A stretch of 45,416 bases of DNA from positions 879-46,294 of the forward strand of contig PCYE01000012.1 in NCBI GenBank assembly GCA_002762865.1, read 5' to 3'. The stretch is from Candidatus Woesearchaeota archaeon CG10_big_fil_rev_8_21_14_0_10_33_12 (lineage in GTDB: Archaea > Nanobdellota > Nanobdellia > Woesearchaeales > CG1-02-33-12). The notes beneath the pieces are model-generated. The model was given only the letters and a program-made list of their open reading frames with translations. It was not told the DNA's origin and did no database searches. This document shows positions 21,115 to 31,311 of this stretch, piece by piece. Positions within the stretch are counted from its first letter, which is position 1, and every line of letters begins with the position of its first letter. The translations under genes and the position numbers were made by a program.

Positions 21115-22164
21115 TTATTTTGCAGGCTTTTTTTCCTGTGAAATCTGTAACTCTTTTCTTATGTTTTCAACAAACTTTTCAAAATCCTTATTTTTTATAC
21201 AGGCACCGCAGGCATACTCATGGCCACCACCATAGCCGTCAATTCCAACAAGTGCTTTTTTCAGTATGTTTGAGACTGAAAGATGGTCTGATGAGCGAAG
21301 GCTGCATTTCATCTCACCGCCTTTCTCACGTGCAACTAAAATGAGTTTTTTTGGAAACCTGTAAAGAAGCTCGTTTGACAAGTCACCTGTAAAACTCATT
21401 CTGTTTGAGTAAATGAATAAAATCATTTTATCATCATCAATATTTTTAAGAGCTTTTTTAAGCATGATTTCATATTCTTCTTCTATTTTTTTGAATCTCT
21501 TAATAATGAATCTTGCCTGTGCTGTCTCTCCGTTAAGCAGTTCATAAGGGGTTTTGATTCTTGTCAATATTTTAACGCAGCTTAAAACATCTGATATTTT
21601 TCCCTTGAGAATAAAGGACAATATTCTTACAAGCTCTCCGAGTTTTGTTTCATACAGGGCTTTTTCTGGTTTAGTTATTTTTGCCGGCAGCAAATCAGGA
21701 TATTCTTTTGAGAACTTTGCTGAAAAATCAGGCAGAGACCAGTCAGCAACTGCTCCGCATGCTGCAATCCACAAGTCCTGCTTAACAACCCTATAACAAA
21801 TGCATGATGCAGGCTCTCCAAATCCGTCTTTTCTTGAGTTATAGTATTTTGTTCCGCTGTTCTTGATAATGTTATGATGGTCTATCCATATTATTGGAAC
21901 TTTTACAGCATCAATAAAATCAGGGCTTACCATTGGCTTGTCAACTATAAAAACCTTGTCCGGGCTGTAATCCTCAACAGTTTTTATAAAAATTGGCTTA
22001 AGCTCAGGGCTGCTCTTTACAACAACACCCTTTCCTTCTCTTTTATACCTATAAAGCAAGATAAAAGAGCAAAGCCCGTCAGGGTCATCATCAAAAAAGA
22101 ACAAAGGTCTCTTGCAGCTGTCAAGCTCTTCTCTTATTTCATTGTAGTGTTTTTCTGTAAGCAT
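21115..22164 (-). CDS. DHH-DHHA1 phosphoesterase (RecJ/NrnA-like)
   Basis: DDDPDG, IWIDHH, GAVAD, KCSLRS, GGGHEYACG. Confidence 0.9.
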   Translation of the reverse strand: MLTEKHYNEIREELDSCKRPLFFFDDDPDGLCSFILLYRYKREGKGVVVKSSPELKPIFIKTVEDYSPDKVFIVDKPMVSPDFIDAVKVPIIWIDHHNIIKNSGTKYYNSRKDGFGEPASCICYRVVKQDLWIAACGAVADWSLPDFSAKFSKEYPDLLPAKITKPEKALYETKLGELVRILSFILKGKISDVLSCVKILTRIKTPYELLNGETAQARFIIKRFKKIEEEYEIMLKKALKNIDDDKMILFIYSNRMSFTGDLSNELLYRFPKKLILVAREKGGEMKCSLRSSDHLSVSNILKKALVGIDGYGGGHEYACGACIKNKDFEKFVENIRKELQISQEKKPAK

Positions 22165-22298
22165 ATTAAAAATAAAAAACATCTCTTATTTAAAATTATG
22201 TTTTAGAAATTGTTATTAACCTGATTAATTATCATTTTTTACTAAAAAATGGTAACAAAACAAAAAACTTAAATAGTAGTTGTGTTAAACCAGTTAAC

Positions 22299-22367
22299 AT
22301 GAAACAGCTAAATTCAATATTCAAAAGATTTAATAGGGTTTTCTTAGCTGAAGCTGTTTGTTGTTAG
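22299..22367 (+). CDS. Putative cysK leader peptide MKQLNSIFKRFNRVFLAEAVCC
   Basis: Ends TGT TGT TAG; TATA-like CTTAAATA at 22268-22275; 79 nt upstream of cysteine synthase. Confidence 0.65.
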   Translation: MKQLNSIFKRFNRVFLAEAVCC

Positions 22368-22446
22368 TTCTTGATTCATTGTCTTTAATTTAAATTATTT
22401 TCTTGGCTTTTGTCTAAAAATTTTTAAAATAAATATGAGGTAAAAA

Positions 22447-23346
22447 ATGGAAAATCTAAAAAAAATTGAGCAAGCCTTTGATGTGTTGAGCATTGTAGGA
22501 AAAACTCCTATGATTAAAATAAGAAAAATACATGCAAAGCTCGAGACAACAAACCCAAGCGGAAGTGTAAAAGACCGCATGGCTGATTACATGGTAAAAA
22601 AAGCAGAGCAAAGAGGTGAGCTAAAGAAAGGCAGCAGGATAATTGAGGTTACAAGCGGCAATACTGGAATAGCTTTTTCAATGATCTCAGCAATAAAGGG
22701 CTATAAGTTTACAGCAGTAATGCCAGAGCATATGAGCGTAGAAAGAATAAAGATGATAAAAGCATTTGGGGCTGATGTTGTATTAACCCCAAAAAAGGAG
22801 GATATGAATGGAGCAATTAGGAAATACAATGAGCTTGTGAGGAAATATCCTAATGCATGGCTTCCAAACCAGTTTGAGAATCAGGACAACATAGAGGCTC
22901 ATGAACTTGGATTGGGAAAAGAGATAATAGCTCAGTTCAAGGGCAGGATAGATGCATTTGTTGCAGGAATCGGAACAGGCGGGACTTTGCTTGGTGTTGC
23001 AAGGGCACTTAAAAAAGAATTTCCTAATGCAAAAATAATTGGTGTTGAGCCAGCTGAATCAGCTGTTTTATCAGGAGGGAAACCAGGCATGCATAAGATA
23101 CAGGGAATCGGCGAGGGCTTTATTCCAAAGCTTGTTAAGGACAACATGAATATGATTGATGAGGTTATTGCAATAAAAAGCAGCGATGCTATCAATATGA
23201 GAAAAAAACTTGCAGAAGAGAATGGAATATTTGTTGGAATAAGCTCAGGAGCAAATCTGCTGGCAGCAATTAAAGCAAGGGAAAGATATGAGAATGTGAT
23301 TACTGTCCTGCCAGACAGAGGAGAGAGATATTTAAGTGGAAATTAA
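22447..23346 (+). CDS. cysK: Cysteine synthase (O-acetylserine sulfhydrylase family)
   Basis: KLETTNPSGSVKDR (PLP Lys), TSGNTG, GIGTGGT, HKIQGIG, GISSGA, PDRGERYLS; GAGGT SD. Confidence 0.93.
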   Translation: MENLKKIEQAFDVLSIVGKTPMIKIRKIHAKLETTNPSGSVKDRMADYMVKKAEQRGELKKGSRIIEVTSGNTGIAFSMISAIKGYKFTAVMPEHMSVERIKMIKAFGADVVLTPKKEDMNGAIRKYNELVRKYPNAWLPNQFENQDNIEAHELGLGKEIIAQFKGRIDAFVAGIGTGGTLLGVARALKKEFPNAKIIGVEPAESAVLSGGKPGMHKIQGIGEGFIPKLVKDNMNMIDEVIAIKSSDAINMRKKLAEENGIFVGISSGANLLAAIKARERYENVITVLPDRGERYLSGN

Positions 23347-29898: not shown

Positions 29899-31311
29899 AT
29901 GAGCCTAAAACTGTACAATACATTAACAAGGAAAAAAGAAGAGTTCAAGGAAATAAAGAAAGGATATGTTAATATTTATAGTTGTGGTCCTACTGTCTAC
30001 AACTTTGCCCACATAGGAAACTTCAGGGCAAATATATTTGCAGATCTTATAAGAAGATACATAAAGTACAAGGGATACAAGCTAACTCATGTTATGAACA
30101 TTACTGATGTTGATGACAAGACAATAAGGGACTCAAAAAAAGAAAATCTTTCTTTAAAAGAATTCACAGAAAAATACACAAAATACTTTTTTGATGACTT
30201 AAAAACCTTAAATATAGAAAAAGTAGAGGTTTATCCAAGGGCAACAGAACATATTAAGGAAATGATTAACTTGATTAAAAAGCTTCTTGAAAAAGGCTAT
30301 GCCTATAAGGCAGATGATGCAATATATTATGACATCAAAAAATTCAAGGAGTATGGCAAGCTTTCGCATTTAAAGATAAGCGAGTTAAAAGCAGGAGCAA
30401 GAGTTTGCCAGGATGAATATGACAAAGAGCATGTAAATGATTTTGCACTATGGAAATTCTGGGACAAAGAAGATGGAGATGTTTTCTGGGAAACAGAGCT
30501 GGGAAAAGGACGCCCTGGATGGCATATTGAATGCTCTGCAATGAGCATGAAGTATTTAGGAGAGACATTTGACATTCATACAGGAGGGGTTGACTTGATA
30601 TTTCCACATCATGAGAATGAAATAGCCCAAAGTGAGGCTGCAACAGGAAAAAAGTTTGTTAATTACTGGCTGCATAACGAGCATCTGCTGGTTGACAGCA
30701 AAAAGATGAGTAAAAGCCTTGGAAACTTTTACACATTAAGGGATTTATTAAAAAAAGGATACAGCCCAAGGTCAATAAGATATGTCCTGATGGCAACCCA
30801 TTACAGGCAGAAGATGAACTTCAGCTTTGAAGGCCTGAATGCAGCAGACAACGCAATAAATCGCCTTGATGAATTCATGGCAAAACTAGATAATATTAAA
30901 GGAGACAGGCATAACCCAAAAATATCCGAACTTATTGAAAAAGTAAAAAGTGATTTTGAGGATGCAATGGATGATGACCTGAATGTTTCAATTGCTTTGT
31001 CAGTTATGTTTGATTTTATGAAGAAAATAAACACCTTCATAATGAATGATAAAATGAGCAGGAAAGATGCTGAAAAAGCAATTGCCTTAATGTATGATTT
31101 TGATTCTGTTTTTGGAATTCTAAAAAAGGAAGAAAAAAAAGAAGAGATAAACAAGGAAATAAAACAATTAATAGAAAAAAGACAGGAAGCAAGAAAAAAC
31201 AATGACTATGAGTTAGCAGACAAGATAAGAGACCAGCTAAAGGAAAAAGGCATAATTCTCAAGGACACAAAAGATGGTGTCAGATTGGAAAAAATAACTA
31301 CTTCAAAATAG
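29899..31311 (+). CDS. cysS: Cysteine--tRNA ligase
   Basis: CGPTVY, HIGN, DFALWK, GRPGWHIECS, FPHHENE, KMSKS. Confidence 0.98.
   Translation: MSLKLYNTLTRKKEEFKEIKKGYVNIYSCGPTVYNFAHIGNFRANIFADLIRRYIKYKGYKLTHVMNITDVDDKTIRDSKKENLSLKEFTEKYTKYFFDDLKTLNIEKVEVYPRATEHIKEMINLIKKLLEKGYAYKADDAIYYDIKKFKEYGKLSHLKISELKAGARVCQDEYDKEHVNDFALWKFWDKEDGDVFWETELGKGRPGWHIECSAMSMKYLGETFDIHTGGVDLIFPHHENEIAQSEAATGKKFVNYWLHNEHLLVDSKKMSKSLGNFYTLRDLLKKGYSPRSIRYVLMATHYRQKMNFSFEGLNAADNAINRLDEFMAKLDNIKGDRHNPKISELIEKVKSDFEDAMDDDLNVSIALSVMFDFMKKINTFIMNDKMSRKDAEKAIALMYDFDSVFGILKKEEKKEEINKEIKQLIEKRQEARKNNDYELADKIRDQLKEKGIILKDTKDGVRLEKITTSK

Follow-up and report, generated by a model that had tools for sequence, protein, structure and literature searches.

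A candidate cysteine-sensing leader peptide upstream of cysK and its relatives in one order of small-genome archaea

In the genome of Candidatus Woesearchaeota archaeon CG10_big_fil_rev_8_21_14_0_10_33_12, a 22-codon open reading frame (ORF) ending in two cysteine codons precedes cysK, the gene for cysteine synthase. We consider it likely that this ORF encodes a regulatory leader peptide and acts as a leaderless, ribosome-dependent attenuator that senses Cys-tRNA(Cys). The ORF was studied in a stretch of 45,416 nucleotides (nt) of contig PCYE01000012.1 (assembly GCA_002762865.1, positions 879 to 46,294 of the forward strand), here called the window, whose coordinates are used throughout. The archaeal nature of the genome is borne out by an aCPSF1 equivalog, by TATA-type promoters and by an archaeal-type alaS in a relative, and a place among the DPANN archaea is plausible. 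Judged from sequence comparison, the leader is one member of a family found across a single order of archaea with small genomes, the Woesearchaeales. The evidence for it is conservation, not rarity.

The leader ORF occupies positions 22299–22367 of the plus strand, runs from ATG to TAG and has the predicted peptide sequence MKQLNSIFKRFNRVFLAEAVCC. Its putative sensor codons, TGT TGT (22359–22361 and 22362–22364, plus strand), abut the stop codon, and the frame contains no other Cys codons. The TATA box of the leader transcript, CTTAAATA (22268–22275, plus strand), starts 31 nt 5' of the ATG; an initial annotation of the window, made from the letters alone, had noted this box and the short ORF ending in TGT TGT TAG, and both are present as described. 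In this genome TATA-like words show a sharp peak of start positions 30–33 nt ahead of the ATG (118 of 803 long ORFs), from which many genes appear to be leaderless, and many long ORFs have Shine-Dalgarno (SD)-like words 9–13 nt 5' of the ATG. As the spacing of the leader's TATA box falls inside the genome-wide leaderless peak, we infer that the transcript starts at the leader ATG, and the ORF is probably translated. A box that the initial annotation had not mentioned, TCATTGT (22376–22382, plus strand), lies 8 nt past the stop codon, the stretch reading TAG TTCTTGAT TCATTGT, and is conserved in the family. It is followed on the same strand by a U-rich spacer (22383–22436) with a possible internal TATA-like word, TTTAAATT (22389–22396), by the SD-like GAGGT of cysK (22437–22441) and by cysK itself (22447–23346). 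The 79-nt spacer with an SD before cysK was thus also correctly described. The 299-residue product is a cysteine synthase A (Pfam PALP) that scores 362.4 bits against the NCBIfam equivalog TIGR01139, with a cut-off of 350.95.

A Cys-ending mini-ORF alone is not beyond chance in this genome, which contains 454 short ORFs with two adjacent Cys codons in 1.05 Mb; it is beyond chance once position is counted. A strict filter, demanding a TATA-like word 20–36 nt before an in-frame ATG, a length of at most 45 codons and Cys-Cys within the last 8 codons, gave 5 matches in the whole 1.05-Mb genome, among which the window leader was the sole one ending in Cys-Cys-stop and the sole one with TCAT after it. 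The cysK leader remained the only convincing leader of this genome, and none was found at its thrS.

Among 61 related genomes of 0.6–2.7 Mb, 25 contained cysK homologues, and we counted those 17 loci in which the homologue was full-length and its upstream sequence available. In 13 of these (L001–L004, L007–L014 and L019), a TATA-positioned mini-ORF ending in 2–5 Cys codons lies upstream of cysK on the same strand; at the other four (L005, L017, L018 and L026) the Cys leader is missing. The initial annotation had made its reading depend on a conserved Cys-ending upstream ORF (uORF) in relatives, and these loci, together with the cognate downstream genes described below, support its core proposal of a leaderless, cysteine-sensing cis-regulator. 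The predicted peptides end in ..AEAVCCC in a genome of the same genus (L002) and in ..AEAVSCCC in one of the same family (L003), and further leaders read MKQTIDCCC, MTECCCC and MINQICCCC, the shortest peptides having 7 residues (MTECCCC, MITRCCC).

The family was also recovered independently of cysK. Of the 401 genomes searched in this order, 106 contained the pattern TGYTGYTGYTRRN{3,16}TCATWG and 22 a reversed control pattern (hand count); the pattern tallies include five unpublished genomes, none of whose loci entered the locus analysis. The pattern is thus common within the order, whereas it occurred in 4, and the control in 5, of 83 genomes from other orders of the class. Most matches to the Cys pattern were judged to be chance or N-termini of real proteins. 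We examined 30 listed loci from the pattern search and 60 more, leaving out matches in which TRR was TGG, those from unpublished genomes, further copies of a match lying inside a conserved gene (L042, L055) and repeated places; two further matches (G352:C39 and G319:C15) also stand outside the locus set. An objective filter applied to the first 120 loci, 87 of them from the pattern search, yielded 41 unique elements, one of which (L067) we judged to be chance. In total, we compiled 42 Cys leaders with runs of 2–5 Cys codons, including two from later searches (L144 and L152), and 28 of the Cys leaders are pattern-derived, that is, not found via cysK. All 53 compiled leaders, of all types, have a TATA-like word 29–36 nt before the ATG, a property that was part of the selection filter.

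Several features suggest that the mini-ORFs are coding. Cys runs use both TGT and TGC, alternating in frame, and the number of Cys codons varies by whole codons, being two in this genome (G000), three in G005 and one more than here in a strain contig; from this in-frame codon use and whole-codon variation the mini-ORFs are probably translated. The frame is open for 7–29 codons and the stop follows the run directly or after 1–2 codons. Outside the codon run, the leader peptides are not conserved.

The family consensus past the stop codon is (A)ATTCT..YTCATTG; behind it come a pyrimidine-rich segment and, in many cases, TAG. In 12 of 14 leaders found via cysK, a set not chosen for the box, TCAT lies 4–9 nt past the stop, and in 52 of the 53 compiled leaders the distance is 3–9 nt. 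Where possible, AATTCT overlaps the stop codon (TAA-TTCT, TGA-ATTCT, TAG-AATTCT), which argues that the spacing of the box is fixed relative to the codon run. Over the 25 nt past the box, the T content averages 47.5% (53 leaders). Several roles for the box were considered and rejected. It does not mark gene ends or terminators in general, as TCATTG shows no enrichment past 994 long ORFs of this genome (8 occurrences in the 30 nt past them, 0.27/kb, vs. 0.40/kb genome-wide). A mini-ORF starting from its TTG is at odds with the replacement of T by A (TCATAG) in 6 of 38 cases, and a readthrough extension into the box with the varying frame of the box relative to the uORF. Pairing of a 5' AUGA with the UCAU of the box, which is long in L027, L012 and L001, was not significant, with p = 0.07 for exact matches and p = 0.08 with one mismatch (permutation, 35 non-redundant leaders), and pairing with the main start codon was dismissed since the context A-ATG-A is found at 15 of 52 main genes vs. 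175 of 821 long ORFs of this genome. A downstream partner for the box, sought with RNAduplex over 300 nt and as an exact complement over 1.5 kb, was found only in L004, L040, L041 and L102. In these four loci the 3' trailer of tRNA-Cys has an exact box complement of 9–11 nt (at its longest CAATGAAAGAA / TTCTTTCATTG), and leader and trailer could enclose the tRNA in a helix; the trailer complement is not present in other tRNA-type loci.

The genes behind the Cys leaders are those of cysteine supply and charging. For 24 of the 28 pattern-derived leaders, tRNA-Cys, serine O-acetyltransferase, cysK or cysS lies within 1.5 kb on the same strand; the remaining four are followed by contig ends (L044, L053), a PIG-L deacetylase gene (L069) or a LAGLIDADG ORF (L120). 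ARAGORN placed a tRNA-Cys(GCA) behind 11 of the 41 filtered elements and behind L144, and three more intron-containing tRNAs (L004, L010 and L080), for which the program returned nothing, Lys and Gly, respectively, were read by eye as GCA. The hexapeptide ORFs behind leaders were serine O-acetyltransferases in 11 of 11 cases (NCBIfam), a frequent order being tRNA-Cys, then cysE or cysK, then cysS, and one Cys leader (L019) has a DsrE gene behind it. The distance from the leader stop to the next gene or tRNA in relatives is 16–130 nt, and in four loci (L008, L011, L056 and L069) an SD-led gene follows only 16–60 nt behind the leader. In at least 10 members the tRNA-Cys starts 19–35 nt past the leader stop. 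As a separate promoter would not fit into this gap, the tRNA must be made from the leader's promoter, and the mini-ORF would serve as the 5' leader of tRNA-Cys.

Leaders of the same build carry codon runs for other amino acids. A general search for TATA, ATG, 18–48 nt and TCATTGT found matches in 144 of 251 genomes vs. 33 for the control (hand count), and much of the excess consists of real leaderless genes with N-termini encoding x-His-Cys zinc motifs or PEDFIV. Candidates were picked by eye among the matches listed, by an in-frame stop shortly before the box, and were complemented by two small searches (five genomes). From 18 candidate regions, three (L140, L151 and L153) were rejected as chance or N-termini of real proteins, which left the two Cys leaders L144 and L152 and 13 others; L133–L135 came from an earlier search for the box alone, L133 being the same place as L145. 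Upstream of valS, the predicted peptides are MICVVVVVA (L137), MTHVVVVVA (L138) and ..VNVVVVVL (L139), and upstream of thrS they are ..VLTTTTTTA (L146, L147) and ..VTTLTTTTTA (L148). MKFKTSISS (L149) precedes serS, MRTPAIAAR (L143) alaS, and a relative has an alaS of archaeal type. An unassigned ORF stands between the leader and trpS in L136 (MVNFKVDYWYWR) and between the leader and tyrS in L150 (..FTSYFYM). Two leaders before a pyridoxal phosphate-dependent aminotransferase gene, ..AIAGC (L141) and ..EIAVL (L142), and one before deoxyhypusine synthase, ..SRAGR (MQFKNALFDTVSRAGR; L145, G248:C5), show no clear sensor residue. In all 13 non-Cys leaders the TATA box starts 29–32 nt before the ATG and the conserved box lies 3–15 nt past the stop. 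From their codon runs and downstream genes, the Val, Thr, Ser, Ala, Trp and Tyr leaders suggest a leader-peptide regulon centred on aminoacyl-tRNA synthetases. Their distribution is patchy. A related arrangement was seen in L179, from a GC-richer genome, where a 43-codon Thr-rich leaderless ORF precedes thrS without a TCATTG box; it may represent a variant expression platform.

The initial annotation had attributed the regulation to a hairpin switch, and this part of it fared differently. The segments it paired can indeed pair: the inner helix, AAACAGCT (22302–22309) with AGCTGTTT (22352–22359), plus strand, is part of the minimum free energy (MFE) fold, together with pairing of 22294–22299 with 22362–22367, and the complement CAGCTAA (22305–22311) / TTAGCTG (22344–22350) of the proposed alternative is present in the sequence. 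The fold is no more stable than dinucleotide shuffles, with z = −0.39 for 22290–22375 and z = +0.98 for 22285–22450, and the outer helix requires bases 5' of the likely transcription start. A terminator made of a hairpin and a T run was found at 0 sites in 22100–22600. In 34 leaders in which the uORF head was shuffled, the mean z was −0.27 and the median −0.04, with 6 of 34 below −1, and no common structure was seen across 50 other family members. Given the ordinary z-scores and the lack of a structure excess over 34 leaders, we rejected a hairpin switch as the general mechanism. The inner helix is retained in the two closest relatives, whole in L002 and with 7 bp in L003. No RNA run was listed as containing this sequence; among strain variants taken from DNA contigs of four runs, one contig (run X21, depth 3.4) combines 22308 C>A with 22353 G>T, turning a C–G pair into A–U, and has 22304 A>G, which keeps a G–U pair. 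The 22308 change breaks the alternative helix. A TTG inserted behind 22357 in the same contig creates a third in-frame Cys codon; the leader of this strain carries five substitutions, two synonymous and three not. One compensatory event in the inner helix is suggestive only, and the helix is at most a local feature.

We propose a mechanism that dispenses with hairpins. The shared module consists of a TATA box some 30 nt 5' of the start codon, a mini-ORF whose last 2–8 codons hold the cognate run, a stop, and YTCATTG 3–9 nt further on. The leader ORF would be the first cistron of a leaderless transcript and would report the supply of Cys-tRNA(Cys). With Cys-tRNA plentiful, the ribosome would pass both Cys codons to the stop, cover the box and leave, and most transcripts would end or be cut before cysK; with Cys-tRNA scarce, it would wait at the Cys codons and more RNA polymerases would proceed into cysK. 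The regulated step is most likely transcription or RNA fate, a view favoured by the module preceding a tRNA gene as well as mRNAs; since the tRNA gene is often the first target, a purely translational mechanism would not be general. For the box, we infer a role from its place: at the footprint sizes we take to be usual, a ribosome with the stop codon in the A site would cover it, and it would be free when the ribosome waits further upstream, like 'region 2' of the trp attenuator. The idea we favour, though tentatively and at less than an even chance, is that the box, with its invariant single-stranded CA in U-rich surroundings, is where the termination nuclease aCPSF1/FttA enters or cuts. This genome encodes an aCPSF1 equivalog (897 bits, cut-off 580), and Pyrococcus aCPSF1 has been described as preferring single-stranded CA dinucleotides (PMC3553952). 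Alternatively, the box could be the counterpart of 'region 2' itself, its availability being set by the position of the ribosome.

A number of observations weigh against this reading or narrow it. That stalling raises rather than lowers downstream expression is assumed from bacterial leaders, and if ribosome and polymerase simply came apart, factor-dependent termination should be favoured, an effect in the other direction. In a long Thr run, a ribosome waiting at the first codon would stand about 29 nt 5' of the box, so that simple masking of the box by a stalled ribosome does not fit all members. T runs past the box do not exceed shuffles (T4+ in 33 of 53 leaders vs. 27.5, T5+ in 13 of 53 vs. 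14.8), and three tRNA-type leaders have no T run there at all. The Val trio (L137–L139) and the Thr trio (L146–L148) come from one family and represent few independent lineages, and among thrS loci from 30 families, a Thr leader complete with TATA and box stands in 2 (L177, L178), the Thr-rich ORF of L179 in 1 and no leader in 27. In this genome, the leader carries two Cys codons only, neither tRNA-Cys nor cysS (29899–31311, 25 nt after the preceding gene) is preceded by a leader, and no serine acetyltransferase was found by tblastn with the proteins of two relatives (genome 93.7% complete). Finally, cysK may have a promoter of its own: the TATA-like TTTAAATT at 22389–22396 lies 58 nt before the cysK ATG with the SD in between, and in relatives with the order leader, tRNA-Cys, cysK (L102/L123 and L013), a TATA of cysK itself is found about 30 nt before its start. 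The effect of the leader on cysK could thus be small here, and because of the possible internal promoter its control of cysK is less certain in this genome.

The last of these points also speak for the most serious rival, according to which the leader here has survived as a relic or is transcribed separately as a short RNA, cysK being expressed from its own promoter after the tRNA had moved out of an ancestral leader–tRNA-Cys–cysK unit. The tRNA-Cys of this genome does lie elsewhere, without a leader, and just two Cys codons remain. Yet the leader, its TATA box, Cys codons and conserved box are intact in this genome, G005, G012 and a third strain, and the substitutions elsewhere in the peptide combined with the gain of a Cys codon indicate purifying selection on the sensor parts; in L008, L011, L056 and L069, moreover, the short distance to an SD-led gene makes co-transcription unavoidable. 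We therefore regard this rival as unlikely. Translational attenuation of the mycobacterial type, in which the Cys tract or the box would pair with the ribosome binding site or start and a stalled ribosome would free it, appears somewhat less probable still. Mycobacterial polycysteine leaderless small ORFs are reported to act in this way (10.1101/834739), cysK has an SD here, and UCAUU is complementary to A-AUG-A; the first downstream gene, however, is a tRNA without a ribosome binding site in at least 10 members, main genes show the A-ATG-A context no more often than the long ORFs of this genome do, the box arm forms no significant duplex with the next 300 nt except in the four related loci, and UGUUGU is not complementary to GAGGU.

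Two further explanations leave the sensing ribosome out altogether. If the mini-ORF encoded a functional Cys-rich micropeptide, such as a metal or sulfur carrier that is merely co-expressed, its C-terminal CC to CCCCC could bind metals, and the association with the sulfur genes for TusA and DsrE would be natural; we think this very improbable because the peptides shrink to 7 residues with nothing but the run conserved, and because leaders of identical build, box included, place Val, Thr, Ser, Ala, Trp and Tyr runs before cognate synthetase genes, which a function of the peptide would not explain. Hardly more credible, and marginally less so, is an untranslated RNA element with an incidental frame, whose runs and box would bind tRNA or protein directly in the manner of a T-box. 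The existence of a conserved linear box with no known role and its complementarity to the tRNA-Cys trailer in four related loci are compatible with such an element, but Rfam reports only tRNA in the window and six member loci, every member has an ATG where transcription is predicted to start, the frame stays open over 7–29 unconserved codons with the stop placed directly or 1–2 codons past the run, and the run length shifts by whole codons. Chance occurrence of an ORF in an AT-rich spacer could appeal to the 454 short CC-containing ORFs and the ordinary folds, but its probability is next to nil: it is already refuted by the 13 of 17 cysK loci, the 28 pattern-derived copies at cysteine genes and the shared box. 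The ribosome-read leader thus remains our preferred reading.

Leader-peptide attenuation is a textbook bacterial mechanism that needs coupled transcription and translation, and T-box riboswitches of Firmicutes bind tRNA directly and need no ribosome. The archaeal family resembles the T-box regulon in that synthetase and related biosynthesis genes each stand behind an element specific for the charging of the cognate tRNA, synthetase genes being at the centre of both; Rfam searches at gathering thresholds gave no match to the T-box covariance model in the window and six member loci. A co-oriented ORF close to the gene and enriched in cognate codons, as expected of leader attenuators in the broad sense, is present. 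Such an ORF with a cognate run is also what the trpL, hisL, thrL and pheL attenuators of the Yanofsky model are described to have (10.1101/834739), with a stop placed immediately 5' of sequence that the ribosome would cover on terminating ('region 2'). The archaeal leaders differ in having no terminator and antiterminator hairpins, in being apparently leaderless and not SD-led, in working with an archaeal RNA polymerase and in standing for the most part before genes of aminoacyl-tRNA synthetases and a tRNA gene.

Cys leader peptides are known from bacteria, with accounts from mycobacteria (10.1101/834739), Actinobacteria (PMC1262725) and upstream of cysS in Rhodobacterales (PMC8632094). The closest likeness is to the mycobacterial polycysteine small ORFs of Canestrari et al., which in that account are leaderless mini-ORFs with consecutive Cys codons near the stop, stand first in cysteine-metabolism operons and form a ribosome-read regulon over several loci (10.1101/834739). 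They are bacterial and have no sequence relationship to the archaeal leaders, and their reported mechanism is to release an SD that the Cys tract sequesters, transcription termination having been shown not to be involved (10.1101/834739). The archaeal family, by contrast, often has a tRNA gene as its first target, carries the YTCATTG box past the stop and covers at least seven amino acids, and pairing of its Cys tract with the SD of the next gene was not found, there being neither significant duplexes nor an enriched start context. The uORFC-8-2 motif, as described, shares two tandem Cys codons and ribosome-mediated attenuation, but is bacterial, includes two conserved stems and a U-run terminator and is confined to cysS (PMC8632094). 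In the tna system (TnaC with Rho) and the Rho-type model put forward for actinobacterial Cys leaders, a leader peptide without terminator hairpins is combined with a linear sequence by the stop as the proposed factor entry site, access to which is gated by the ribosome (PMC1262725). As in that model, a conserved unstructured box lies by the stop in 52 of 53 leaders and a candidate factor, the aCPSF1 equivalog, is encoded; the archaeal family would differ from tna in using aCPSF1/FttA and not Rho, and in stalling at hungry sense codons and not at the stop through the nascent peptide.

No archaeal leader-peptide attenuator was found in the full-text literature searched, which does not cover subscription journals; the initial annotation had named no described equivalent in DPANN archaea. 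Going by the sequences, what appears to be new is leader-peptide attenuation in another domain of life, with hairpins replaced by a linear box and with a tRNA gene as one of the direct targets. More ambitiously, leaders and the YUCAUUG box may form an order-wide system of hairpin-free, ribosome-read attenuation for at least seven amino acids, which would control synthetase genes, the tRNA-Cys gene and biosynthetic genes, with the box as the decision site for aCPSF1/FttA or another factor; we put this forward as a speculative possibility, more doubtful than probable. If true, Archaea would have their first case of leader-peptide attenuation, and a tRNA gene would for the first time be seen under the control of a leader peptide. 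The system would also be a natural read-out of the coupling between transcription and translation in archaea, direct evidence for which remains scarce according to a recent commentary (PMC13681488). The family suggests that these archaea sense amino-acid shortage by a stalled ribosome, as bacteria do, and would show how very small genomes with few regulators balance tRNA charging. It offers a concrete, mutable sequence for testing how archaeal ribosomes, RNA polymerase and termination communicate. Recognition of the leaders would also improve the annotation of mini-ORFs of 7–29 codons, which are probably unannotated.

Some loci of the family have unusual gene content. In L014, a gene for a TusA sulfur carrier and then cysK fused to a JAB/MPN domain follow the Cys leader, an arrangement that, to our mind, recalls thiocarboxylate-dependent cysteine synthesis of the CysO/Mec type. 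Single frames in L011 (1320–2798) and L144 (265–1773) combine a cysteine synthase domain with the catalytic domain of cysteinyl-tRNA synthetase, an apparent fusion of the two enzymes in two genomes, both frames running past the end of the sequence. The PIG-L deacetylase gene behind the leader MNLGCCC (L069, 307–1167) is weakly similar to BshB1 (53.6 bits, below the cut-off) and may link the leader to a cysteine-containing thiol. Introns occur in tRNA-Cys genes behind four leaders (L004, L010, L070 and L080), two of which ARAGORN mistypes, and a LAGLIDADG endonuclease ORF directly follows the leader in L079 and L120. The tRNA-Cys of the present genome (G000:C30:6560-6850) is itself directly preceded by an apparent intron-containing tRNA gene. 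In the window, a DHH/DHHA1 gene (21115–22182) diverges from the leader and cysK, the Rfam search reported an unrelated tRNA and no other family, and the DNA of the window is present in groundwater and aquifer metagenomes.

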